Below, one piece after another: positions 8,124-20,055 of a DNA stretch of 64,000 bases. The DNA is taken from positions 5,427 through 69,426 of the forward strand of contig DXMY01000031.1 in NCBI GenBank assembly GCA_019413925.1. The letters run 5' to 3'. Made by a program: the position numbers and the translations under genes. Source of the stretch: Collinsella sp. (GTDB taxonomy: Bacteria > Actinomycetota > Coriobacteriia > Coriobacteriales > Coriobacteriaceae). How positions within the stretch are numbered: the first letter of the stretch is position 1; every line of letters begins with the position of its first letter. The notes beneath the pieces were generated by a model, which was given only the letters and a program-made list of their open reading frames with translations, was not told the origin of the DNA and searched no databases.

Positions 8124-10805
8124 CTAGTCCTCGAGCAGGTCCTCGATAAAGCCGACGCGGTAGTTTTTGAAGATGACCTCGCCGCCGTCTTGCGTGGCGT
8201 CCAGATCGACATCGCCCATGATGCCAAAGTCGTGGTCGCCATCCTCGTCGGCAAAGATCTGGTGCACGTGCCATACGTGCGCGGTCTTCTCGTCGGACTC
8301 ATCGATGGAAAACATCGCGGCGCTGCGGGCATCTCCGTCGGTGAGGATTTCCTCGTGCTGCTCGTGGTAAGCGTCGAGTGCTTTTTGCCAGCGGATCTCG
8401 CTCATGCCCCAGTCGTCGTCGAGCTCGCCCAGGTCGCGAACGTGCTCGCGGGCGGCAAGGGTCACGCGGCGGAAGAGCGCGTTGCGCACCAACAGCGTGC
8501 AGCCGCGGCGGTCCGCCACGACCTCGTCGATGCCCTGCGGCGGCGTGGTGTCGAGGGCTGCCGGGTTGCCAGCGTTCTCCCACTCGTCCACCAGGCTCGA
8601 GTCGACCGAGCGCACCACAAAGCCCAGCCACGAGATAATGTCGCGCAGGCGCTCGTCGCGCTTCTCGATGGGTACGGTGCGGTCGAGCGAACGGTAGGCC
8701 TCTGCCAGGTAGCGCAGCAAAATACCCTCGGAGCGGGCGATGCCGAGCTTTTGAATGTAGCCCTTAAAATCGCTCGCGCTTTCCAGCATATCGCGCAGAA
8801 CGCTCTTGGGAGAGAGCTGATAGTCGTTTGCCCAGGGTACTTCCTGGCAGTACTTGTCAAAAGCGGCGTCGAGCAAATTCTCGAGCGGCTTTTCGTACGT
8901 GACGTCTTGAATGCGCTCCAGACGCTCCTCATATTCGATGCCGTCGGCCTTCATCTCGGCCATAGCGCGATCGCGTGCTGCGCGCTCCTGTGCGCGCAGC
9001 ACCTGCTTGGGATCCTCGAGCGTTGCCTCGACCATTGAGATTAAGTCCATGGTATAGGTCTCGCTCTCGGGATCGAGCAGCTCCAACGCGGCAAGCAAGA
9101 ACGGCGAGAGCGGCTGATCGAGCGCGAAGTCCTCGGGCAGATCGACCGTCAGCGCATAGTCGATGTCTGGTGCGGCGTCAGCCGGGGCATCGGGTGCGGG
9201 CGGCACCTCGGCGCGCACGACGACGCCGGAATCGATGAGCGTGGCGAAGATTTCGTCGGCGCGAACCTCGAGTTTTGCCTTTTCCTCTGGCGTTTGCAGG
9301 CTTGTCTCGATGAGGTCGTGCACGCGGGCGCGAGCATCGCCGCCCTGCTCGACCACGCTAATCACCATGGAGTGTGTGATGCGCAGGCGCGGCTTGAGCG
9401 TCTCGGGCTGCGTCTCGATCAGGCGCTCAAAGGTCTGCTTGTTCCAGGTGACAAAGCCCTCGGGGGCCTTTTTCTTTTTAATCTTACGGAGTTTTTTGGG
9501 GTCGTCGCCTGCTTTGGTCATAAGCTTGGCATTCTCGATCTCGTGCTCGGGTGCCTCGGCAATCACCATGCCCTCGGTATCGAAGCCCGAGCGGCCGGCA
9601 CGACCGGCAATCTGATGGAACTCACGGGCGCGCAGACGACGCATCTTGTAGCCATCGAACTTGGTGAGCGCGGTGAGGACCACGGTGTGGATGGGTACGT
9701 TGATGCCGACGCCGAGCGTATCAGTACCGCAGATGACGGGCAGCAGGCCCTGCTGTGCCAAGCGCTCGACCAGCAGGCGATAGCGCGGCAACATGCCAGC
9801 ATGGTGCACGCCGACGCCGCAGCCGAGCAAGCGCTTGAGGATCTTGCCGAAGGCCGTCGAGAAGCTCGTTCCCTTTGCCGCTTCTTTGATGGCTTCGCGC
9901 TGCTCCTTGCTGGCGATGCCAAAATTGGCGAGCGACTGCGCCGTCGCAAGGGCGGCATCCTGGCTAAAGTGCACGATATAGAGCGGGGCCTCGCCACGGC
10001 GCATGGCGAGCTCGACGGTGCCCTCGAGGGAGGTCGTCACATAGTCGTAGCTCAGCGGAACAGGACGCGGGGCGTCGACAACCAAGTCGCAAGCAGCGCC
10101 GGTGTGCTCCTCGAGTGAGGCGGCGATGGCAGTGACATCGCCGAGCGTGGCGCTCATGAGCATAAACTGCGTGTGGGGCAGGGTGAGCAACGGCACCTGC
10201 CAGGCCCAACCGCGATCGGGGTCGGCAAAGTAGTGGAACTCATCCATGGCCACGCAGCCCACATCGGCGTCCTCACCCTCGCGCAGCGCATCGTTAGCAA
10301 GGATTTCGGCCGTGCAGCAGATGACGGGTGCCTTGGTGTTGATATGCGTGTCGCCGGTGATCATGCCGACGTTATCGCGGCCGAGCACCTGCACAAGGTC
10401 GAAGAACTTTTCGCTGACCAGGGCCTTGATGGGGGCCGTGTAATAACAACGCTTACCCTGCGCCATGCCCATAAAGAGCATGCCCAGCGCGACGAGCGAT
10501 TTACCCGATCCGGTCGGTGTGCCTAAGATGACGTGATCGCCGGCAGCCAGGTCCATGAGGGCCTCTTCTTGGTGATCCCACAGTTCAATACCGCGATCGC
10601 TCGTCCATTCAAAGAAACGCTCGAAGGCCTGGTCGGGCGTGAGCCATGGCTCGGGCTCACTGCCATCCTCGGGCTCCCACCAGGTGGGGGAGAGCGCGCC
10701 GAGCGAGCCAAACTTGGCTTCGGTTCCCGTGCCGCCCGAGAATGAGCTGGCGGCGCCGGCGCCGGAGACGGTGCTGGCGGCGGTATCTGTCGTGGTCTGT
10801 GCCAT
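8124..10805 (-). CDS. Ski2-like DEAD/DEAH-box helicase with long C-terminal extension (DUF3516-type)
   Basis: GTPTGSGKSL (motif I), MDEFHYFADPDRGWAW (motif II), SATL, QIAGRAGRSG (motif VI). About 400-aa C-terminal region as in actinobacterial DUF3516 helicases. Confidence 0.88.
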   Translation of the reverse strand: MAQTTTDTAASTVSGAGAASSFSGGTGTEAKFGSLGALSPTWWEPEDGSEPEPWLTPDQAFERFFEWTSDRGIELWDHQEEALMDLAAGDHVILGTPTGSGKSLVALGMLFMGMAQGKRCYYTAPIKALVSEKFFDLVQVLGRDNVGMITGDTHINTKAPVICCTAEILANDALREGEDADVGCVAMDEFHYFADPDRGWAWQVPLLTLPHTQFMLMSATLGDVTAIAASLEEHTGAACDLVVDAPRPVPLSYDYVTTSLEGTVELAMRRGEAPLYIVHFSQDAALATAQSLANFGIASKEQREAIKEAAKGTSFSTAFGKILKRLLGCGVGVHHAGMLPRYRLLVERLAQQGLLPVICGTDTLGVGINVPIHTVVLTALTKFDGYKMRRLRAREFHQIAGRAGRSGFDTEGMVIAEAPEHEIENAKLMTKAGDDPKKLRKIKKKKAPEGFVTWNKQTFERLIETQPETLKPRLRITHSMVISVVEQGGDARARVHDLIETSLQTPEEKAKLEVRADEIFATLIDSGVVVRAEVPPAPDAPADAAPDIDYALTVDLPEDFALDQPLSPFLLAALELLDPESETYTMDLISMVEATLEDPKQVLRAQERAARDRAMAEMKADGIEYEERLERIQDVTYEKPLENLLDAAFDKYCQEVPWANDYQLSPKSVLRDMLESASDFKGYIQKLGIARSEGILLRYLAEAYRSLDRTVPIEKRDERLRDIISWLGFVVRSVDSSLVDEWENAGNPAALDTTPPQGIDEVVADRRGCTLLVRNALFRRVTLAAREHVRDLGELDDDWGMSEIRWQKALDAYHEQHEEILTDGDARSAAMFSIDESDEKTAHVWHVHQIFADEDGDHDFGIMGDVDLDATQDGGEVIFKNYRVGFIEDLLED

Positions 10806-10903
10806 GTGTTTGCTTTCTCTCGCGATTGTCCGCCAACTATTATGGCGTAGCGGCGGCGCGGGGCGGCAGCGCGCGAGAAAATGCAGGAAATGGGCGTGCG
10901 GTG

Positions 10904-11743
10904 CTAGCGTTCCTGAGGCAGGCGCTTCTTGCCTTTCCGGGCACGGTTTCTAAAGATCTCGACGGCCTCTTCCATGCCGAGAGGCACGTAGGTGAGTTCA
11001 TCGAGGTTATCGGGCAGGTAGCACGCAAGGCTTTGCTCCTGCATGCGGCCTACTGTGAGTTGTTCGTCGGTTGGCTGTGCTCCGGGTGTGGCGCATATGC
11101 CATAGACGGCGGCGCCCATTTCGCGCGTGCGGCGTTCATATTCGGTCTCGGGATGCTCGGGATGGTCGCGGCGGACGTCGTCACTTACCCAAAGCGTATC
11201 GTAGCCGGCCGCGGCAAACTGTCTCAGGGCGTAATCGCGCAATGGCTTGCTGTCGGTGCGCAGCGTGACGGTAGCGCTGGCTGCAAAGAGCGGGCGATAG
11301 AGCATTAGATGGTCGACATGGACGAGTCGTTTTTTGGCGTACTTGGCCTTGGGCTGCGGCGTGGGAAAGTTAATGGTGATGGCATCGAGCTCGCCTGCGG
11401 CAAACAGCTGCGGCAGCGATACGGCGCCTCGGGGCAGGACGAGTGCATTGGAAAGCTCCTGCTCGCAGATTTTCTGTGCGGCATAGGCGATGCAGATGGG
11501 TTCCTGGTCCATGCCGATAAAGAGGGTGTTTGGCTCGTGGGCCGCACGCTCTACAAGGTACGTTCCCTTGCCACAGCCAAGATCCAGGTGAAGGTGTTCG
11601 AAGGGCTTGCTGTCAACTGGCGCGCAAGCCTCGCGCCAATCTCCGGCATAGGCCTCGGGGTTCGTCTCAATCGCATCGGCGTAGCGCTCCAAGCGCTCCT
11701 CGAGCACAAAGTTTTTAGGCGTGCGAACATGGACGGCTCCCAT
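10904..11743 (-). CDS. trmB: tRNA (guanine46-N7)-methyltransferase TrmB-like
   Basis: LDLGCGKGTYL SAM motif and INFPTPQPKAKYAKKRL (compare FPDPWPK..H.KRR of TrmB). About 50-aa C-terminal extension. Confidence 0.75.
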   Translation of the reverse strand: MGAVHVRTPKNFVLEERLERYADAIETNPEAYAGDWREACAPVDSKPFEHLHLDLGCGKGTYLVERAAHEPNTLFIGMDQEPICIAYAAQKICEQELSNALVLPRGAVSLPQLFAAGELDAITINFPTPQPKAKYAKKRLVHVDHLMLYRPLFAASATVTLRTDSKPLRDYALRQFAAAGYDTLWVSDDVRRDHPEHPETEYERRTREMGAAVYGICATPGAQPTDEQLTVGRMQEQSLACYLPDNLDELTYVPLGMEEAVEIFRNRARKGKKRLPQER

Positions 11744-11860
11744 GGGGCTCCTTGGTCATAAGTATGGAACGTATAGCTGCACGTTCCGTCAATGGGTTGA
11801 AAAAAGTGGGCATAGTTTGCCCGAAAGGCGTGGTGCGGCTCGGCGGCGAGTCGTCGGTGC

Positions 11861-12733
11861 CTACAGACGCTTGAGAATCACATAGCGGTTGAGCTCGCCG
11901 CTGCGACCGTCGGCGTGGAAACGCTCGAGCTCGCGTACGGGAACCTCGCCGCTCTTGTAGAACGTACGGACGCCGCGCACCAGGTCGGTGATCTGCTGGT
12001 CGTCAAAGTGATGGCAATAGCGGTAGGCGTGGCGGTCGTTTTGCCAGCCAATGAGGTGGTCGCCGGCTTCGAACTGTGCGGAATCGTAACCCTCAAACGG
12101 CGGGGTGAGCTCGGCGCGGGCCTCGGCGCGAACGGCTTTGCGCGCCATGCGCTCGTCGTTCATAAACTCCCAAAAGCTGATGGCGATGATGCCGCCCGGG
12201 CGCGTCTGGCGCACCAGGGCGTCGAGCACGCGTACGCGGTACTCGCACGACGGCACGTGGTGCATAAAACCAAAGCAGACCGAGATGTCGGCGAGCGGGG
12301 CGTCGAAAAGCACGTCGGGTGTCTCGGCGGGGTTGAGCTTCATGAGGGCATCGAGCACGTCGAGTTCCTGGAAGTGCAGGTTGGGAATGCGCAGGGCGTG
12401 ACCGTGCGCATCGATAGCCAAATCCTGACACGAGTCAACACCATAGAACTCAAACGGGCAGCTGGCGTCTGCCGAGGGGTTTGCGCCATCGACGCCCTTG
12501 GCGGCAAGTGCGCCGCCGGCGGCAAAGTTCTCGAATCGCATATTGCCACAGGCAAGATCGAAGACGCGGACGGGATGCTCGATCGTGGCGACGTCGAGCT
12601 GTTCGAGCGCGATATCCATGGTGCGCACCCAGCCGGGCCACGGGGCCTGGCGCGTATCGGAAAAGGAGGCGGAGTGCTCGCGATAGAACGTGTTGTTGAG
12701 CTGGATGAGCGACGAGGCGAAATCGCGGTTCAC
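11861..12733 (-). CDS. Trm9/ALKBH8-like class I SAM methyltransferase
   Basis: FYREHSASFSDTRQAPWPGW matches the Trm9/ALKBH8 signature (V)Y..IA.HFS.TR..PWP. Also DLACGN motif I, YRYCHHFDDQQITDL (compare HRYYHVFREGEL) and C-terminal ELNRYVILKRL (compare GNWCVILQK). GTG at 12733 has GGAGGGAG 9 nt upstream. Alternative ATG at 12781. Confidence 0.7.
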   Translation of the reverse strand: MNRDFASSLIQLNNTFYREHSASFSDTRQAPWPGWVRTMDIALEQLDVATIEHPVRVFDLACGNMRFENFAAGGALAAKGVDGANPSADASCPFEFYGVDSCQDLAIDAHGHALRIPNLHFQELDVLDALMKLNPAETPDVLFDAPLADISVCFGFMHHVPSCEYRVRVLDALVRQTRPGGIIAISFWEFMNDERMARKAVRAEARAELTPPFEGYDSAQFEAGDHLIGWQNDRHAYRYCHHFDDQQITDLVRGVRTFYKSGEVPVRELERFHADGRSGELNRYVILKRL

Positions 12734-13000
12734 GGCGCGGAACTCCCTCCGTTGGCGGTGTGGAATAAACAGTACGACCATACTACCGTTAACGCCGCAA
12801 CGGGGACAACCGAGCTGAGGGTCATTGCTTTGTTTGGACACATTTCCGCAGCTCATATGCACCCGCAACCGACGGTTGTCAAAAATCTCACTAGAATAGG
12901 TGGCATGCTTTTGGCGGTGGCGGATAGATTTTTAACTGTGCAAGGCGCCTTAAGAACAAAAACGGTCCGGCGGCACGGCTGGCATCACATAGGAGGAACC

Positions 13001-13723
13001 ATGAATGTAGAAACTGCGCAGCGGCTCGCCGACCTTCGCCGAAGCAAAGGCTTTAGCCAAGAAGGGCTGGCACGAAAGCTGGGACTGTCGCGCCAAGCAG
13101 TCAGTAAATGGGAGCGCGCGGAGAGCTCGCCCGATACCGAGAACCTGATCTCGCTCGCCAAGCTCTATGGTGTGAGCTTGGACGAGCTGCTCAATCCGAG
13201 CGATGAGATTGAGGACGATATCGAGTTTGAGAACGAGGACCGTGCCCGTCAGCGCGAGGCCGAGGCGGCAGATCGCGCCCGTACCCATGAGGCGGCGGCA
13301 CGTGCAACCGAGGCGGCAACACAGGCGAGTGACGCCGCCGCCAAGGCGGCGCAAGCGGCAAGCTGGAGTGCGCAGGCCGCCAATGCCGCTACGGCGCAGG
13401 CGACGAGTGGCAGCGCAGTTGGCTCGACTCCGGTGAAGGGCCCGTTCCAGTCGTTCCCGTATTGGGCCGTGTGCTGGCTGCTGTTCTTTTTGCTGATGTT
13501 CCTGTTTGGTGCCGGCCCCTTTGCCGCACTGATCTTCTTTACGATTCCCATCTATCACTGGGTGGCGCGTGCGCTCGATGGCGATTGGGCGCGCGGGGAT
13601 ATTCAGGTTGGTTCGGCGTCGGTGGCGGTCAAGGCCCAGGGGAAGGATACTTCTGCGGAATCTGATGCTGACGTGGCTACCGCGACTACCGCTGAGCCGA
13701 TTGCCAAAGAGAGTAATGAATGA
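13001..13723 (+). CDS. XRE-family HTH regulator with Ala-rich linker and C-terminal transmembrane segments
   Basis: AGGAGG at 12991, ATG at 13001. LRRSKGFSQEGLARKLGLSRQAVSKWE HTH. C-terminal FPYWAVCWLLFFLLMFLFGAGPFAALIFFTIPIY. The upstream 362 codons of the 602-aa track ORF are antisense to the Trm9-like gene. Confidence 0.85.
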   Translation: MNVETAQRLADLRRSKGFSQEGLARKLGLSRQAVSKWERAESSPDTENLISLAKLYGVSLDELLNPSDEIEDDIEFENEDRARQREAEAADRARTHEAAARATEAATQASDAAAKAAQAASWSAQAANAATAQATSGSAVGSTPVKGPFQSFPYWAVCWLLFFLLMFLFGAGPFAALIFFTIPIYHWVARALDGDWARGDIQVGSASVAVKAQGKDTSAESDADVATATTAEPIAKESNE

Positions 13724-14619
13724 TGAAGCTTTCGCATGAATCCAAGGTACGCTTGGGCGTTGGCATCGGAGCGTTTGTGCTCATCATCGGGCTTGTCTTT
13801 GGCATTTCGCGGACTTTGATTTATTTTGATGGCCCGTGGGATCTCGACGATGTTGTATCCGGCTTCTCTGGTATGGACGATGCGGTTGACGAGGACGATC
13901 TTTTGGATGGCGGTAACTATTCCGCTCAGCCTCAGCAGCTTTCGAGCGAAACCTTTGATGCCGACGCGTTCACATCGCTTGACTTGGACGTGACGTCGGG
14001 CACGGTCGAGGTCAAACACGTCTCCAGCGGGCCAGTGCGCGTAATTGAAAGCGGTCGCGTGGCAACGGGGACCGTTGCCTTCGATGCGGCAACCCAGAAC
14101 CTGGCCGAAATCAAGGGCTCTACGCTCAAGATTCGCCAGTTCGATTGCGATGACGAGCGCGCCATTGACCGCACGGTTACCGTCGAACTGCCGCGCGAAG
14201 TTGCCGATAACATGGTGGGCATTACAGCGAATGTAGGATCGGGTGACCTGACGGTCGCGGGTATTGCGTGTCATGACCTTAACCTGACTTTGGACTCTGG
14301 AGACGTTGAGTTTACGGGCACCGTGACCGATACCCTGAATGCCGAGGTCGGTTCGGGCGATGTGACGTTCGAGCTCTACCAGGCCCCCGCGAAGTCGATG
14401 GACGTGAGTGTGGGCTCGGGCGATGTGGAGATGACGGTTCCGAACTCGACGGGCTTTAAGGCGAGCCTCACCTTGGGCAGCGGCGACTTTGAGAGCGATT
14501 TCCTTCCGCTTGGCTACGACGGCGAGACCATTTTGAATCTTGAATTCGATAACGGCGATAAGTCTGCTACGTATCGTTTTGAGGTCGGTTCGGGCGACAT
14601 GTCGTTTGATCCGGAGTGA
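13720..14619 (+). CDS. DUF4097-type beta-strand repeat protein with N-terminal membrane anchor
   Basis: ATGA overlap with the XRE gene. Six GSGD[LVFM]/DSGDV repeats about 20 residues apart, typical of DUF4097. Confidence 0.85.
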   Translation: MMKLSHESKVRLGVGIGAFVLIIGLVFGISRTLIYFDGPWDLDDVVSGFSGMDDAVDEDDLLDGGNYSAQPQQLSSETFDADAFTSLDLDVTSGTVEVKHVSSGPVRVIESGRVATGTVAFDAATQNLAEIKGSTLKIRQFDCDDERAIDRTVTVELPREVADNMVGITANVGSGDLTVAGIACHDLNLTLDSGDVEFTGTVTDTLNAEVGSGDVTFELYQAPAKSMDVSVGSGDVEMTVPNSTGFKASLTLGSGDFESDFLPLGYDGETILNLEFDNGDKSATYRFEVGSGDMSFDPE

Positions 14620-14666
14620 CATGCGGTTTTCGGAGATCGGTACATATAGGCATGCTCTTTGATGGA

Positions 14667-14705
14667 GGCGCCGGAGCCGTGACGGGCTTCGGCGCCTTTG
14701 CCTTT
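14667..14705 (+). terminator. Intrinsic terminator after the DUF4097 gene
   Basis: GGCGCCGGAGCC / GGCTTCGGCGCC (11 bp + G.U) followed by TTTGCCTTT. Confidence 0.55.
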
Positions 14706-14716
14706 ACAATGGGGAC

Positions 14717-16624
14717 ATGGAACAGATTATCTTGAACATACTCGAGGCTCTGCGTCGCGGCGAGACCGTGGACGACAAAGCGCTCGTCAAACTGATACAT
14801 GCCGAGGCGCGCCGTGAGGGTGCCGACAAACGCGATTTGGCCAAGCGCCGTCTGCTGCCGTTCTACCAGCGGGTTAAACGTGAGGAGCCGGTTCGGTGGG
14901 CTGCGTGGAATGTCGATTCCGATTTGGAGCGTCAACTGCTGCAGGTCCTGCGTATGAAGCCGCGCCGAACGGCCTCGGGCGTGGCGACCATTACCGTCAT
15001 TACCAAGCCCTGGCCATGCTCGGGCGATTGCCTGTTTTGCCCCAACGATCTGCGCATGCCCAAAAGCTATCTGCACGCCGAGCCGGCGTGCGCCCGTGCG
15101 GAGCAAAACTGCTTCGACCCGTATCTGCAGGTGAGCGCTCGTCTGACCGCGCTTTCGCAGATGGGACATGCGACCGACAAGATAGAGCTCATTGTGCTCG
15201 GCGGTACCTGGAGCGACTATCCGCAAGGGTATCAGACGTGGTTTATGTCGGAGCTTTTCCGTGCGCTCAATGACGATGCCGTCGCCGGTGTGGCGGCAAA
15301 CCCCATGTTGGCGCGTCCGGGCATCAGCCGTGCCGAGGCAGGGCGCCTGCTCGATGACGCTCCCGCCGATGCCCTGCCGCCGGTGGTAACAGAGCGCCGC
15401 GAGCGCTATCGGGCTGCCGGCATTGCGACCGACGAGGCCGAGCTTGCGAGCGGCGTTGCCGACGAGCAGGGGCGTGTGGATGCTGTCGTTGGTGGCTATA
15501 ACCGCGCAGTGCGTCGTCTGTACGGCCCCGGTACGCCATGGGGCGAGGCTGCCGAGTGGCAGACGGCAACGATGGAGGAGCTTGAGCGTCAGCAGCGCAT
15601 CAACGAGACGGCGAAGCATCGCGTGGTGGGGCTCGTTATCGAGACCCGCCCCGATGCCGTGACGCCACAGGCGCTCACGCTCATTCGTCGTCTGGGCTGC
15701 ACCAAGATTCAGATGGGTATCCAGAGTCTCGACCAGCACCTGCTCGATATCAACGAGCGTCGCATTTCGGTGGCTCAGATCGAGCAGGCGTTTTCGCTTG
15801 CGCGCCTCTTTGGCTTTAAGATCCATGCGCATTTTATGCTCAACTTATTGGGCGCCACACCCGAGGGGGACAAGCGCGACTACGAGCGCTTTATGACCGA
15901 AGGGGCCTTTATGCCCGACGAGGTCAAGGTCTACCCGTGCGCGCTCATCGAGGGCTCGCGTCTGGTGGGCTGTTACGAGCGCGGCGAGTGGCGTCCCTAT
16001 ACCGAGGAAGAACTGCTCGATGTGTTAGCCGACGACATCGTGGTGACGCCGCCGTTCTGCCGTATCAGCCGCATGATCCGCGATTTTAGCTCCGATGACA
16101 TCATGGTGGGCAACAAGAAGCCCAACCTGCGCCAGCTCGTTGAGAACCGCCTGGCTGCTCGGGGTGATGGTGCGACGGTGCGTGAGATTCGCTATCGCGA
16201 GATCAGCACGGCGGGTGCCGACTTGGATGAGCTATCTCTTGATGAGGAAGTGGCGTACGAGACGCCGGTGACGCACGAGCGCTTTTTGCAGTGGGTGACG
16301 CCGCAGGGCAAGATCGCGGGCTTTTTGCGTCTGTCTCTGCCCGATCGTGCTTTTGTTGCCGCGCATGCGGATGAGTTGCCGACGACACCGGACGAGGCGA
16401 TGATTCGCGAGGTGCACGTGTATGGCATGGCGGCGCGCGTGGGAGATCAAGGCCAGGCAGCCCAGCACCATGGATTGGGGCGTTTGCTCGTAGAGCGTGC
16501 GTGCGAGATTGCCCGGGATGCGGGTTATACGCGTATCAACGTGATTAGCGCAATCGGTACGCGCGAGTACTATCGCCATTTGGGTTTTTGCGACCATGGA
16601 CTCTATCTGCAAAAGGAGCTCTAG
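14717..16624 (+). CDS. elp3: Elp3-type radical-SAM/GNAT tRNA wobble-uridine modification enzyme
   Basis: CSGDCLFCP CxxxCxxC cluster, central radical-SAM barrel blocks and a C-terminal GNAT block QHHGLGRLLVERACEIARDAGY. 635 aa, the usual Elp3 size. Confidence 0.88.
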   Translation: MEQIILNILEALRRGETVDDKALVKLIHAEARREGADKRDLAKRRLLPFYQRVKREEPVRWAAWNVDSDLERQLLQVLRMKPRRTASGVATITVITKPWPCSGDCLFCPNDLRMPKSYLHAEPACARAEQNCFDPYLQVSARLTALSQMGHATDKIELIVLGGTWSDYPQGYQTWFMSELFRALNDDAVAGVAANPMLARPGISRAEAGRLLDDAPADALPPVVTERRERYRAAGIATDEAELASGVADEQGRVDAVVGGYNRAVRRLYGPGTPWGEAAEWQTATMEELERQQRINETAKHRVVGLVIETRPDAVTPQALTLIRRLGCTKIQMGIQSLDQHLLDINERRISVAQIEQAFSLARLFGFKIHAHFMLNLLGATPEGDKRDYERFMTEGAFMPDEVKVYPCALIEGSRLVGCYERGEWRPYTEEELLDVLADDIVVTPPFCRISRMIRDFSSDDIMVGNKKPNLRQLVENRLAARGDGATVREIRYREISTAGADLDELSLDEEVAYETPVTHERFLQWVTPQGKIAGFLRLSLPDRAFVAAHADELPTTPDEAMIREVHVYGMAARVGDQGQAAQHHGLGRLLVERACEIARDAGYTRINVISAIGTREYYRHLGFCDHGLYLQKEL

Positions 16625-17503
16625 ATGAACAAGCCGAGTGTTTCTGCCGGCGTCGTTGCCGGTGTTGCTCTGGGAGCCGCGGCGCTTGGTGCGGCCGCTG
16701 TCGCTGTTCGTGCTGCCTGTCTGCAGGTTGCGCGAACCCGCAATGGGTTGGCGCGTGTGAAACGCGTGCACGATGAGGGCGGCGACGAGATTCGCGTGTT
16801 GGTGCAAGGCAGCGTCTACCAAAGCGCAAGTTACGTTGGTGAGCGTTGGGCGGAGCCCGTCTTTGCGTACTATCGTGCGTTTGACGACGTGTTTGAGTCC
16901 GAGGATGCGATGCGTGATGCTTATGGTCACGATATCAACCGCATGCTTGTGCTGGGTGGCGGCGGGTTTGCCTATCCCAAGTTCGCGCTGATGTCGCACG
17001 AGGGCTTGCGCATGGACGTCATCGAGTATGACGGAGAGATTACGCGCCTGGCGCGCCGCTGGTTCTATCTGGACGAGCTGGAGTGCACGGCGGGCGATCG
17101 CCTGCGGGTGATAACCGCTGAGGCTCGCTCTTATCTGGGCGTGACGAGTGTTGGTCATCGTCACTACGACGTGGTCGTGAGCGATTGCTTTGGCGGTGCC
17201 GAGCCCGTACGCGAGCTGGCGACGGTTGAGGCGTTGCGTTTGGTGCGGGGCAGCCTAAATGTCGGTGGCGTCTACGTTGCCAATATCGTAAGCACAAACG
17301 AGGGGAGCGATGTGACGTTCCTGCGCGACTGCGCTGCCACGGCACTCGAGGTATTCGCCCATGTCTGGGTGGTCCCCTGTGGCGATGCGGAGTTCGGCGG
17401 CGAGGAGAACTACCTGCTCATCGCCAGCGACGGCGACTATGTCTTTGCCGAAGCCGTGCCCTTCGACGCCGACTTCCTCGGCACCGCCCTTCACGACAAG
17501 TAA
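16625..17503 (+). CDS. Membrane-anchored spermidine-synthase-fold (class I methyltransferase-like) protein
   Basis: ATG immediately follows the elp3 TAG. N-terminal hydrophobic helix. VLGGGGFAYP, DVIEYDGEI and DVVVSDCF blocks resemble spermidine synthase-like proteins. Confidence 0.75.
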   Translation: MNKPSVSAGVVAGVALGAAALGAAAVAVRAACLQVARTRNGLARVKRVHDEGGDEIRVLVQGSVYQSASYVGERWAEPVFAYYRAFDDVFESEDAMRDAYGHDINRMLVLGGGGFAYPKFALMSHEGLRMDVIEYDGEITRLARRWFYLDELECTAGDRLRVITAEARSYLGVTSVGHRHYDVVVSDCFGGAEPVRELATVEALRLVRGSLNVGGVYVANIVSTNEGSDVTFLRDCAATALEVFAHVWVVPCGDAEFGGEENYLLIASDGDYVFAEAVPFDADFLGTALHDK

Positions 17504-17529: not shown

Positions 17530-19974
17530 TTAGGCGTGGTCGCGCCAGCTGAGGACGCGCTGCTTCATGCCCTCTATGTCGAGCACGCCTTCGGCAAAGC
17601 CCTTGCGCACGAGCTCTTCGGGAACAAACTCGTCGTAGCGGTCAAAGTAAGGCACCTCGCCGGGATAGACGAGCTCGATGGGATTGAAGTCCTTCTCGGC
17701 CTCGGCGGCGAGCACCTCAAAGAACGTCTCCTCGTCGGCCTTCATCTTAAACTGCATAAAGTACGGGCGCGATGGGTCGAGTCCGCGAAGGCCCAGCTCC
17801 GCGGCACACTTAATCTTGAGCATGCGCTCGAGTGCCAAAAAGGCGTAACTGCCCAGCCAGGGGAAGAGTACCCAGGTGTCGCCACCCAGGTTGATGAGTG
17901 GCTTGGTTCCCGCACCCGAAATCTCGGCCGTATGGCGAGCCTGCGCCAAGCGGGCCCGCGCGTTACCCATAAGGTACGGATACGCGGCATGTTCATTGAG
18001 CGCTTTGCGCATGCGTTCGAGCACATGTGTGTTGATGTCGCCGGGGCAGTCGCCAAAGTAGGCCGGCACCCGGCCTTTGACCTGCGTGGCAAAGACGGTG
18101 TGGCGCTTCCAGTCCACTTCCTCGACAATCCAGCAGTGTCCGGCGATGGCGATGCGCTCACCGGGCGGAGGGGGGTTGACGATCGTGCCCAACTCGGCCG
18201 ACTCGCTGCGAACGGTGAACTCCTCGTTTTCCTGGAACACGGCGTAGAACTTAAAGTTGTTGATGATGCGCTCGCCCGCGAGGCCCACGATGAGCCCATC
18301 GCCCTCGGTGACCTGGATGTGGTCGATCTTGATGAGGTGACGCAGCAGCACGCGATAGTCATCGGCCGAGACGCGATGGAAATAGCTGAGCGTGAGCACG
18401 CGCTGGGCAAGTTCCGCCGGCGTGAGCTCTCCGGTGCTGGCGAGGGTCGACATGGTCTGGTGATAGAGCAGACTGTAGGGGAGTCGATCGAGCTCAGGCG
18501 GCTCGACCCACTTTTCCTCGCGATAGAGTTGTACGAGCGCGATGCTCTGGAGGAGTTTCCAAGGTATCGTTTCAGGCATCATCGTGCGCGGCTCGGGCTC
18601 TTCCTCGCGCATGACAAACCACATCTCGGGCGGAAGATCGCGGCGCCCCGTGCGGCCCATTCGCTGCAAAAAGGAGCTGACGGTAAACGGCGCGTCAATC
18701 TGGAAGGCGCGCTCCAGGCGGCCGATATCGATACCGAGCTCCAGCGTAGAGGTGGTGACGGTTGTCTGTGCCTGCTCCTCATCGCGCATGAGCTCTTCTG
18801 CCGTCTCGCGCAGCGATGCTGAAAGATTGCCGTGGTGGATGAGAAAGCGGTCGGGCTCGTGCCGGCTCTCGCAGTAGCTGCGCAGCATGGAGCACACGGC
18901 CTCTGCCTCCTCGCGCGAGTTGGCAAAGACCAGGCACTTGCGGCCGCGTGTGTGCTCAAAGATATAGCCCATGCCGGGGTCGGCGTTGTCTGGCGCCGTG
19001 TCGGTGGGGTTGAGTAATGCCTGTTCGGGTGCTCGGGGGATGTCGACTTCGCCCTCGGGGGCCGACGAAGTGCGGCGATCCCTGGAGGTAGCCTTGTCCC
19101 GTGCCCGCTCACGACGTTGACGGCGCTCCTCTTGTGTGAGCTGTCCGCTGTGACGCATGTCTTGGGCGCCGGCGGGCAGTGCCGCGGGTGCCGCTGCCTC
19201 AATGCGCTCGCACGCAAGCACTTCGGCCTCTTGAGGACCCATGCTCTCGAATCCTCGCTGCTGTGCCTGGGGACCCGAGTTGTAGAAGTGCTCCATGGAG
19301 ATACGCCACACGCGGCGCGGCTCCTCAAAGCGGGGGATGATGCAATCGCGTCCTGTTCCCTGCGAGAGGAAGGCACCCGTACGCTCGGGGTCACCGATGG
19401 TGGCCGAAAGGCCGATGCGGCGGGGCTGCACGCCTGCCATGCGCGAGAGGCGCTCGATAAGGCAGAGCGTCTGACCGCCGCGGTCGCCGCGCATGAGCGA
19501 ATGGACCTCGTCGATGACCACGTAGCGCAGGTCGCAGAACATGCGCGGGATCGCCATGTGCTTATGGATTAAGAGCGCCTCGAGTGACTCGGGCGTAATC
19601 TGCAAGATGCCGCTCGGTTTTTTTATGAGCTTAGCCTTGTGCGACTGCGAGACATCGCCATGCCAGTGCCAGACAGGGATATCGGCCTCTTCGCAGAGGT
19701 CGTTGAGACGGACGAACTGATCATTGATGAGCGCTTTGAGGGGGCCGATGTAGAGGGCGCCTACGCTCGCGGGCGGGTTCTCCCAAAACTCGGTCAGGAT
19801 GGGAAAGAAGGCTGCCTCGGTTTTGCCGGAAGCCGTGGATGCCGTCAGGAGCACATTATCTTGCGTGTTAAAGATGGCGTCTGCCGCTGCAACCTGGATA
19901 GAGCGCAGACTCTCCCAATCGTGGGAGTAGATGAAGTCTTGGATAAACGGAGCATATCGGTCAAAGGCGTTCAC
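17530..19974 (-). CDS. Lhr-like DEVH-box superfamily-2 helicase (SngC-like)
   Basis: TASGKTEAA (I), VIDEVHS (II), SATIG (III), QRMGRTGRR (VI). GTG at 19974 has AGGAGG 4 nt upstream (track start is TTG at 19989). Long C-terminal domain. Confidence 0.85.
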   Translation of the reverse strand: MNAFDRYAPFIQDFIYSHDWESLRSIQVAAADAIFNTQDNVLLTASTASGKTEAAFFPILTEFWENPPASVGALYIGPLKALINDQFVRLNDLCEEADIPVWHWHGDVSQSHKAKLIKKPSGILQITPESLEALLIHKHMAIPRMFCDLRYVVIDEVHSLMRGDRGGQTLCLIERLSRMAGVQPRRIGLSATIGDPERTGAFLSQGTGRDCIIPRFEEPRRVWRISMEHFYNSGPQAQQRGFESMGPQEAEVLACERIEAAAPAALPAGAQDMRHSGQLTQEERRQRRERARDKATSRDRRTSSAPEGEVDIPRAPEQALLNPTDTAPDNADPGMGYIFEHTRGRKCLVFANSREEAEAVCSMLRSYCESRHEPDRFLIHHGNLSASLRETAEELMRDEEQAQTTVTTSTLELGIDIGRLERAFQIDAPFTVSSFLQRMGRTGRRDLPPEMWFVMREEEPEPRTMMPETIPWKLLQSIALVQLYREEKWVEPPELDRLPYSLLYHQTMSTLASTGELTPAELAQRVLTLSYFHRVSADDYRVLLRHLIKIDHIQVTEGDGLIVGLAGERIINNFKFYAVFQENEEFTVRSESAELGTIVNPPPPGERIAIAGHCWIVEEVDWKRHTVFATQVKGRVPAYFGDCPGDINTHVLERMRKALNEHAAYPYLMGNARARLAQARHTAEISGAGTKPLINLGGDTWVLFPWLGSYAFLALERMLKIKCAAELGLRGLDPSRPYFMQFKMKADEETFFEVLAAEAEKDFNPIELVYPGEVPYFDRYDEFVPEELVRKGFAEGVLDIEGMKQRVLSWRDHA

Positions 19975-20055
19975 GGGGCCTCCTCTCAAATACGAATCTC
20001 TTAACGCGGTGAGCAGTGGCTCGCTACATTACTGTCTCGACGTTTGCCCAGATAA

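Follow-up and report, generated by a model that had tools for sequence, protein, structure and literature searches.

The 64-kb window analysed here, a stretch of 64,000 nucleotides from a Collinsella genome (contig DXMY01000031.1 of assembly GCA_019413925.1), encodes a full-length Elp3 and, on the opposite strand, a 290-aa class I S-adenosylmethionine (SAM)-dependent methyltransferase that we predict to be a divergent member of the Trm9 family. We propose, with a probability of about 70%, that the two proteins would form a two-gene wobble-uridine pathway of the archaeal/eukaryotic type, ending in a nucleoside of the 5-methoxycarbonylmethyluridine (mcm5U) type. Modification of U34 in bacteria is generally ascribed to MnmE/MnmG, and the chemistry of Elp3 and Trm9 is treated as archaeal or eukaryotic. 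The strongest evidence for a link between Elp3 and the Trm9-like enzyme is their gene context, followed below from the window to other Coriobacteriia. The two genes are located as follows:

14717–16624, + strand: Elp3, with radical-SAM and GNAT/KAT (lysine acetyltransferase) domains, 635 aa, predicted tRNA U34 5-carboxymethyluridine (cm5U) synthase

11861–12733, − strand: 290-aa class I SAM methyltransferase with GTG as start codon, predicted to be a divergent member of the Trm9 family and to methylate the carboxyl group of cm5U34

Conservation of the Elp3–methyltransferase pair in Coriobacteriia

The start codons of both genes are separated by 1983 nt, in agreement with the distance of about 2 kb given in the initial annotation of this DNA, which had also named the co-occurrence of the two genes across Coriobacteriia as a point to be checked. 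A scan with the alignment of the methyltransferase family, carried out on one genome per GTDB species, detected it in at least 576 species, and the best 80 of these at least 576 loci, which were of Coriobacteriia type, were analysed by tblastn with the proteins of the window. These loci came from Atopobium/Lancefieldella, Senegalimassilia, Ellagibacter, Raoultibacter, Gordonibacter, Adlercreutzia, Slackia, Eggerthella, and Collinsella. Elp3 was found in the flank of the methyltransferase in 73 of the 80, being upstream and divergent in 71 of them and at a distance of 310 bp or less in 50 (typically around 105 bp), and a tandem arrangement on the same strand was found in the other two (L055 and L076). 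Seven loci showed no Elp3, five of them ending before the gene could appear and a further one including only 1.2 kb of upstream sequence. With 73 positive loci among the 80 at species level, the pairing of Elp3 with the methyltransferase in Coriobacteriia is far beyond chance.

An all-against-all clustering of the open reading frames (ORFs) encoded within 6 kb on either side of the methyltransferase in the 80 loci revealed that only the methyltransferase and Elp3 families were widely common, the remaining frequent clusters corresponding to shadow frames of these two genes. The conserved unit is the divergent Elp3–methyltransferase pair.

A few contigs of metagenome-assembled genomes labelled as Butyrivibrio, Bacteroidaceae, and Oscillibacter (L029, L033, and L035, respectively) also carried a methyltransferase of the Coriobacteriia type, with Elp3 alongside in the last two. 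These taxon labels are probably due to binning contamination and not to a true occurrence of the gene in such groups.

Relationship of the 290-aa methyltransferase to Trm9

The GTG start assigned to the methyltransferase agrees with the N-termini of its homologues, of which a word-indexed search recovered 475. When cluster representatives were searched exhaustively with a profile, 3,339 were retrieved at E ≤ 1e-3 and 1,370 at E ≤ 1e-30, and the only name given to these relatives at NCBI is “class I SAM-dependent methyltransferase”. Neither Pfam nor NCBIfam holds a model specific for Trm9, and the yeast Trm9 itself is assigned to generic domains only.

The initial annotation had described this protein as Trm9/ALKBH8-like. 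Its resemblance to the methyltransferase Trm9 was borne out by profile searches, by hhalign, and by controls with hidden Markov models (HMMs), while the reference to ALKBH8 did not hold, as an ALKBH8-like architecture was ruled out by the lack of AlkB and RRM domains in Pfam. When a family profile built from 32 sequences was compared with 177,635 PDB sequences, the top match was the Trm9 of Yarrowia lipolytica in the structure of the Trm9–Trm112 complex (5cm2_Z, E 4.2e-5), with a runner-up 26-fold weaker, and the same protein was again the top PDB match of an 18-sequence profile (E 0.006). In hhalign, the family aligned with 17 named fungal Trm9 sequences with a probability of 97.7 and an E value of 1.6e-12 along 154 columns, pairing FSxTRQxPWPGW with FSQTRYKPWP, ACGN with GCGN, the HH doublets of both families, and the Trp that follows strand 4 with Trp145. 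The C-terminal thirds, aligned separately, paired RYCH with RYYH and LNrY with DNWW, a similarity that is weak by itself (P 0.0035).

The comparison with other methyltransferases favoured Trm9, as the family HMM gave 30 bits to the Trm9 of Saccharomyces cerevisiae (ScTrm9), 3 bits to Escherichia coli CmoM, and scores below zero to the TrmB-like and spermidine-synthase-like proteins of the window. A CmoM-like function, i.e., methylation of 5-carboxymethoxyuridine (cmo5U), was ruled out on the basis of these 3 bits against the 30 of Trm9 and of the linkage to Elp3. In addition, an AlphaFold2 model of the protein (pLDDT 87) presented the alternating pattern of strands and helices typical of the class I fold, and Foldseek returned more than 770 matches for it; the 50 matches listed were all methyltransferases, with 5cm2_Z in second place.

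From these sequence comparisons, the 290-aa protein is a predicted remote but specific relative of Trm9, which belongs to a distinct and unannotated Trm9 subfamily. It seems to us very likely that this enzyme belongs to the Trm9 family and has a functional connection with Elp3.

Conservation of the residues required by yeast Trm9

Mutants R29A, D72A, H116A, W145A, W168A, R241A, Y243A, and N271A of yeast Trm9 lose function (Létoquart et al., PMC4678810). According to the roles proposed for ScTrm9, R29, R241, and Y18 hold the carboxylate of cm5U, H115 and N271 read the uracil, with Asn271 as the proposed reader of O2/N3 of U34, and W145 stacks on the uracil (PMC4678810). The three sequence blocks on which the initial annotation had relied were all present in the window protein, at residues 24–33 (FSDTRQAPWP), 237–243 (YRYCHHF), and 282–290 (NRYVILKRL), and the following segments of the gene could be aligned with ScTrm9:

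12635–12664, − strand: FSDTRQAPWP; Arg28 corresponds to ScTrm9 Arg29, and the upstream Tyr17 to Tyr18

12251–12265, − strand: MHHVP; His158 and His159, both invariant, correspond to ScTrm9 His115 and His116

12164–12178, − strand: SFWEF; Trp188, invariant, corresponds to ScTrm9 Trp145

12005–12052, − strand: IGWQ...YRYCHHF; Trp230 corresponds to ScTrm9 Trp168, Arg238 to Arg241, and His241 to His244, with Cys240 in place of Tyr243

11864–11890, − strand: NRYVILKRL, C-terminal strand; Asn282 corresponds to ScTrm9 Asn271

Conservation was counted over 131 representatives of the family. The counterparts Y17, R28, D100, H158, H159, W188, W230, R238, and N282 were each conserved in at least 99% of them (99% in the case of Asn282), so that seven of the eight residues essential by mutagenesis in ScTrm9 are kept, with Tyr243 as the exception. 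Within the FSDTRQAPWP block, aligned both by hhalign and by HMMER, Y17, R28, and W32 were invariant and T27 was found in 95% of the sequences; W230, R238, and H241 were also invariant around YRYCHHF. Regarding the SAM-binding site, motif I (DLACGN) aligned with DVGCGN, and D100 (in GVDSC) with ScTrm9 D72 (in GSDRS), both being invariant.

Features of the Coriobacteriia Elp3

The full-length Elp3 with a radical-SAM cysteine motif and a GNAT domain announced by the initial annotation is indeed encoded in the window. Its 635-aa product scored 403.7 bits against TIGR01211, for which the cutoff is 350, covering positions 45–522 of the 522 of the model, and Pfam recognised in it the domains Radical_SAM, Radical_SAM_C, and Acetyltransf_1 (27.8 bits). 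The closest PDB matches were the Elp3 proteins of Methanocaldococcus infernus (MinElp3; 6iad, 9e-83) and of Dehalococcoides mccartyi (DmcElp3; 5l7j, 1e-76), followed by eukaryotic Elp3 at around 1e-62. The main features of the protein were mapped as follows:

15017–15040, + strand: radical-SAM [4Fe-4S] motif CSGDCLFC (Cx3Cx2C), Elp3 residues 101–108; aligns with CPGKCIYC of DmcElp3, with the same spacing

15275–15574, + strand: insertion of ~100 aa in the radical-SAM domain, Elp3 residues ~187–286, detected in the alignment; the alignments with PDB structures are interrupted from residue 186 to residue 287

16463–16483, + strand: acetyl-CoA motif QHHGLGR, KAT domain, residues 583–589 of Elp3; the aligned counterparts are QHMGYGR in MinElp3 and QHRGLGR in DmcElp3

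To define clade features, the window Elp3 and four other Coriobacteriia sequences were aligned with DmcElp3 and MinElp3. The three cluster cysteines and QHxGxG were invariant in the alignment of Elp3 with DmcElp3 and MinElp3. The insertion in the radical-SAM domain measured 65–100 aa in the Coriobacteriia proteins and was found neither in archaeal nor in Dehalococcoides Elp3, and the Coriobacteriia proteins were also extended at the N-terminus by some 85 residues of basic character that DmcElp3 does not have. Bacterial and archaeal Elp3 have been described as sharing a CxCxxC zinc motif in the inter-domain linker that eukaryotic Elp3 does not have (PMC6367351). This motif was not found in the window protein, which shows VREIRYRE where DmcElp3 and MinElp3 show CRCIRCRE; the same was observed in the four other Coriobacteriia sequences aligned. 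Since this motif is not universal to Elp3, its loss does not exclude the protein from the family.

A parallel pair in Dehalococcoidia-type loci

A metagenome scan anchored on the sequence of DmcElp3, as read from its PDB alignment, yielded 80 loci. In 58 of them, Elp3 shared 59% identity or more with DmcElp3 (92% in one case), and these loci were searched with the fungal Trm9 HMM. An ORF of about 220 aa homologous to Trm9 was detected immediately upstream of Elp3 and divergent from it in 36 of the 41 loci whose sequence extended 900 bp or more upstream, with E values from 1e-15 to 1e-25, and the locus with the 92% identical Elp3 also bears such a divergent homologue. Overall, a neighbour of this kind was noted in L081 (9280–9960, − strand) and in 37 related loci within L082–L135, to which L145 and L160, with a more distant Elp3, can be added. 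Loci in which Elp3 was 45–51% identical to DmcElp3 mostly had no Trm9-like neighbour; these possibly come from archaeal or other lineages.

In Pfam and NCBIfam, the neighbours of the Dehalococcoidia type are named only as generic methyltransferases. They keep YHH, VWN, VPW, YRYYH, and RNI, the equivalent of Tyr243 is mostly retained, and they aligned over their full length with fungal Trm9 in hhalign (probability 99.8, E 4e-30). They also aligned with the Coriobacteriia methyltransferase family along 191 columns (probability 98.8, E 1.4e-16), and because of this significant alignment to both, they bridge the fungal Trm9 and the Coriobacteriia enzymes.

Genes surrounding the pair in the window

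The window has a GC content of about 60% and its source genome is Collinsella aerofaciens-like; public loci of C. aerofaciens encode proteins 88–98% identical to those of the window, apart from the more variable product of the DUF4097 gene (73–92%). ORF listing and family scans with Pfam and NCBIfam identified these neighbours, of which the HTH-XRE, DUF4097, and spermidine-synthase-like genes had gone unmentioned in the initial annotation:

8124–10805, − strand: DEAD/DEAH helicase with a Ski2/Hel308-like core and a C-terminal DUF3516 domain (611.8 bits, model positions 1–464 of 464)

10904–11743, − strand: putative TrmB-like methyltransferase for 7-methylguanosine at position 46 of tRNA (m7G46) (Pfam Methyltransf_4, 95.9 bits, cutoff 24)

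13001–13723, + strand: HTH-XRE membrane protein, recognised in its translation, between the methyltransferase and Elp3

13720–14619, + strand: DUF4097 (toastrack)/LiaG-like protein (Pfam DUF4097, 60.2 bits)

16625–17503, + strand: spermidine-synthase-like protein, with a hydrophobic segment at the N-terminus (NF037959, 71.2 bits, cutoff 40)

17530–19989, − strand: Lhr/ligase-associated DEXH-like helicase (TIGR04121, 194 bits, below cutoff)

The first of these proteins is a superfamily 2 DUF3516 helicase, in which both the core and the complete DUF3516 domain are present; Pfam also detected DEAD (61.2 bits) and Helicase_C (28.4 bits) in it, and its similarity to Hel308 was below threshold in NCBIfam. 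The TrmB-like protein scored below the cutoffs of both NCBIfam equivalog models of TrmB (116.9 against 132 for NF001080, and 98.2 against 112.65 for the second) and continued for about 60 aa after the C-terminal end of the Methyltransf_4 domain.

The initial annotation had placed the methyltransferase in a cluster with trmB and the Ski2-like helicase. The three genes are in fact co-directional, with gaps of 117 nt between the methyltransferase and trmB and of 98 nt between trmB and the helicase, but this arrangement is not a conserved set, as trmB was found in only 23 of the 80 Coriobacteriia loci and the helicase in 24, all of them of Collinsella type and with these genes downstream of the methyltransferase. 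In the 56 loci of Atopobiaceae and Eggerthellaceae, neither gene was near the Elp3–methyltransferase pair, which persists there. Only the Collinsella lineage shows this linkage to trmB and the helicase, which is probably incidental; because they lie near the pair only in loci of this type, both genes are left out of the conserved unit. Between the stop codon of the methyltransferase and the start of trmB, a GC hairpin followed by a run of T was noticed (11822–11808, − strand), which hints at separate transcription units for these two genes. Scans of the region for promoters and terminators gave results at chance level, terminator-like sites being no commoner than in shuffled sequence.

The HTH-XRE and DUF4097 genes overlap by 4 nt, run in the same direction as Elp3, and split what would otherwise be an adjacent divergent pair. 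They were present in 13 of the 80 loci, all of C. aerofaciens type. The ancestral state was probably a divergent pair with a short intergenic region in common, into which these two genes were inserted later in the C. aerofaciens lineage.

On the other side, the TAG codon of Elp3 directly abuts the ATG of the spermidine-synthase-like gene (junction GAGCTC TAG ATG), and the immediate succession of both codons suggests translational coupling between them. This gene was detected in 22 of the 80 loci, nearly all of Collinsella type, mostly after Elp3 and at a different place in L038. The Lhr-like helicase gene is convergent to the Elp3 operon and was a neighbour in 19 of the 80 loci, only of Collinsella type. 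No tRNA genes were found in the window.

Proposed pathway and alternative explanations

In the pathway that we propose, Elp3 would use its radical-SAM cluster and acetyl-CoA to carboxymethylate U34 at its C5 in a subset of tRNAs. This first step, which would yield cm5U, is inferred from strong homology. The Trm9-like enzyme would then methyl-esterify the carboxyl group of cm5U34 at the expense of SAM to give mcm5U34, as suggested by its remote homology to Trm9, the conservation of active-site residues, and the conserved gene linkage. The resulting mcm5U might be further 2-thiolated by functions encoded elsewhere in the genome. Since MnmE and MnmG have been reported to be missing from Actinobacteria, the phylum of Coriobacteriia (a statement made for the phylum and not specifically for Coriobacteriia), the pair may supply a modification of the C5-substituted xm5U34 type otherwise lacking in these bacteria. 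Neither MnmE nor MnmG was found in the 64-kb window, which is too small to judge the genome.

A number of observations weigh against such a pathway. The methyltransferase taken as a single sequence had no match in NCBIfam and its phmmer matches in the PDB were noise, and Pfam provided only generic models below threshold (Methyltransf_11, with 17.7 bits against 21.2, and also Methyltransf_12 and Methyltransf_31). In the Foldseek comparison, the scores of Trm9 were close to those of many generic class I and natural-product methyltransferases; little weight was given to this result, and because Foldseek fails to discriminate among class I methyltransferases, the assignment to Trm9 rests on profiles, motifs, and context. 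The position of ScTrm9 Tyr243 is occupied by Cys240 in 98% of the family, which may entail an altered chemistry or a different positioning of the substrate. Furthermore, eukaryotic and archaeal Trm9 need Trm112, and no Trm112-like, thiolase, or reductant partner was conserved within 6 kb in the ORF clustering of the 80 loci, no Trm112 model having been applied to the window. One locus of a Senegalimassilia sp. (L050), with full 10-kb flanks, has no Elp3 near the methyltransferase and constitutes the sole clear negative. Finally, direct evidence for U34 modifications of the carboxymethyl type (xcm5U34) in bacteria is lacking according to a 2020 review (PMC7663514).

The generic sub-threshold Pfam matches, the natural-product methyltransferases with similar Foldseek scores, and the unspecific name of the NCBI relatives would also fit a 290-aa protein that is an unrelated methyltransferase for small molecules or proteins, placed near Elp3 by accident, or an Elp3 that is some other acetyltransferase and forms with its neighbour a pair unrelated to tRNA. 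However, the pair is kept in two distant bacterial lineages and in three gene orders, and the similarity specific to Trm9 includes blocks outside the SAM-binding core and was obtained with negative controls. Moreover, it is tRNA, and not peptides, that triggers the hydrolysis of acetyl-CoA by bacterial, archaeal, and eukaryotic Elp3 (PMC6367351). Such an accidental or non-tRNA association is disfavoured, and we regard it as highly improbable. A single tRNA-processing module made up of the Trm9-like enzyme, trmB, the DUF3516 helicase, and Elp3 appears improbable too: it would unite a tRNA enzyme, TrmB, with a helicase of the Ski2-like type, whose members act on RNA, and the short-spaced, same-strand arrangement of the three genes is repeated in 23–24 Collinsella-type loci, but trmB and the helicase are away from the pair in 56 of the 80 loci while Elp3 and the methyltransferase stay together, and the hairpin with its T-run separates the methyltransferase from trmB, even if sites of this kind occur at chance frequency.

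It could also be that the methyltransferase does belong to the Elp3 pathway without producing plain mcm5U, by acting on another intermediate, on another set of tRNAs, towards a different end product, or only in complex with Elp3, an explanation that we consider unlikely. The signature Cys240 points in this direction, whereas the Dehalococcoidia neighbours keep RYYH, and so do the 70–90 residues of the family that are not in the cores of fungal Trm9 and the atypical Coriobacteriia Elp3, with its insertion, its basic N-terminal extension, and no CxCxxC. Against it, the equivalents of the residues for the carboxylate (R29, R241), the uracil (N271, H115), and stacking (W145) are all invariant, and the yeast Y243A mutant, zymocin-resistant in vivo, retains about 10% activity (PMC4678810), so the position is not strictly catalytic. 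The pathway ending in an mcm5U-type nucleoside is the reading that we prefer. A wider proposal, for which we see the chances as evenly balanced, is that two unrelated bacterial lineages, Coriobacteriia and Dehalococcoidia, would use an Elp3/Trm9-type pair for marks of the mcm5U class, the pair of Coriobacteriia replacing the lost MnmE/MnmG by means of a Trm112-independent, Cys-bearing Trm9 subfamily.

Comparison with known systems

The eukaryotic Trm9–Trm112 systems (S. cerevisiae, Y. lipolytica 5cm2, and the corresponding domain of human ALKBH8) have in common with the Coriobacteriia enzyme the class I SAM fold, Y...FSxTRxxPWP, HH, two Trp, RYxH, and a C-terminal Asn, on which the formation of mcm5U depends according to mutagenesis, and Trm9 acts in eukaryotes downstream of Elp3, as proposed here. 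In contrast, the Coriobacteriia enzyme is only about 17% identical to eukaryotic Trm9, includes additional stretches of some 25 and 35 residues, carries Cys instead of Tyr243, is bacterial, is encoded beside Elp3, and has no Trm112 gene conserved nearby; compared with human ALKBH8, it is devoid of AlkB and RRM domains.

The archaeal sets, compared by description (Sulfolobus solfataricus, and Haloferax volcanii with HVO_2888 as Elp3 and HVO_1032 as Trm9), likewise combine a stand-alone Elp3, without Elp1, 2, 4, 5, and 6, with a Trm9-family enzyme. The clustering of the genes for Elp3 and Trm9 was already noted in Sulfolobus in 2008 (PMC2584109; also PMC6144793), mcm5U has been reported in H. 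volcanii (PMC6367351), and the Trm9 of this organism is a validated partner of Trm112 (PMC6144793). Archaeal Elp3 has the CxCxxC zinc motif, whereas that of Coriobacteriia does not. The characterised bacterial enzyme DmcElp3 (5l7j) is also stand-alone, with Cx3Cx2C and a type of locus that includes a divergent Trm9-like neighbour; it shares 37–40% identity with the Coriobacteriia proteins, from which it differs in its short N-terminus, the zinc motif that it keeps, and the absence of the insertion. The neighbouring methyltransferase in loci of this type is a compact canonical homologue of Trm9 of about 220 aa with RYYH.

Two bacterial systems act on the same nucleotide. The MnmE/MnmG pathway (with MnmC) modifies the same position, C5 of U34, and is expected to serve likewise in the decoding of split codon boxes, but its enzymes are unrelated (a GTPase and a flavin adenine dinucleotide/folate enzyme) and its chemistry is different, leading to 5-carboxymethylaminomethyl (cmnm5) and 5-methylaminomethyl (mnm5) groups. 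CmoM (SmtA) of E. coli, which converts cmo5U into its methyl ester (mcmo5U), is also a bacterial class I enzyme that esterifies a carboxyl group on the side chain of U34; however, it shows no specific similarity to the Coriobacteriia family and works downstream of CmoA/CmoB instead of Elp3.

Significance

Reports on the occurrence of Elp3 in bacteria differ, from “some bacterial clades” (PMC6367351) to Dehalococcoides only (PMC7663514) and, elsewhere, “numerous bacteria”. The biochemistry of the archaeal and D. mccartyi enzymes has been published (PMC6367351, PMC7663514), but the bacterial protein has been discussed almost only for Dehalococcoides, whose difficult growth has been given as the reason for the missing evidence on xcm5U34 (PMC7663514). 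Regarding Trm9, a 2017 review stated that no bacterial homologues of Trm112-dependent methyltransferases were detectable (PMC5372719), and no account of a Trm9 partner in bacteria was encountered in the literature searched, although the primary DmcElp3 paper might mention one. The initial annotation had regarded a paired bacterial Elp3 and Trm9-like set as undescribed, and this stands for bacteria within the literature searched, but not for the clustering as such, given its precedent in Sulfolobus. Bacterial Elp3, which is annotated automatically, and the Elp3/Trm9 clustering of archaea being already known, the arrangement is not new in kind. What is new is the predicted divergent and previously unrecognised bacterial Trm9 subfamily encoded beside Elp3, a finding that is a prediction of comparative genomics and not a new principle.

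In conclusion, an isolated Elp3 homologue becomes part of a predicted two-step pathway, as a Trm9-family partner goes with it both in Coriobacteriia (at least 576 species-level genomes) and in Dehalococcoidia-type loci, and a predicted function is provided for a large family, with 1,370 representatives at E ≤ 1e-30, so far named only as class I SAM-dependent methyltransferases. The pair is also a candidate answer to the question of what replaces the lost MnmEG in part of Actinobacteria, and it makes the question of bacterial xcm5U testable in gut commensals that can be cultured, among them C. aerofaciens and Eggerthella lenta. If true, the proposal would establish an mcm5U pathway in bacteria for the first time, with the abundant human gut genera Collinsella, Eggerthella, and Lancefieldella among its carriers, and would offer a culturable and genetically tractable bacterial model for the chemistry of stand-alone Elp3; in that case, mcm5U signals detected by tRNA sequencing or mass spectrometry in the gut microbiome might not come from host or fungal RNA alone.

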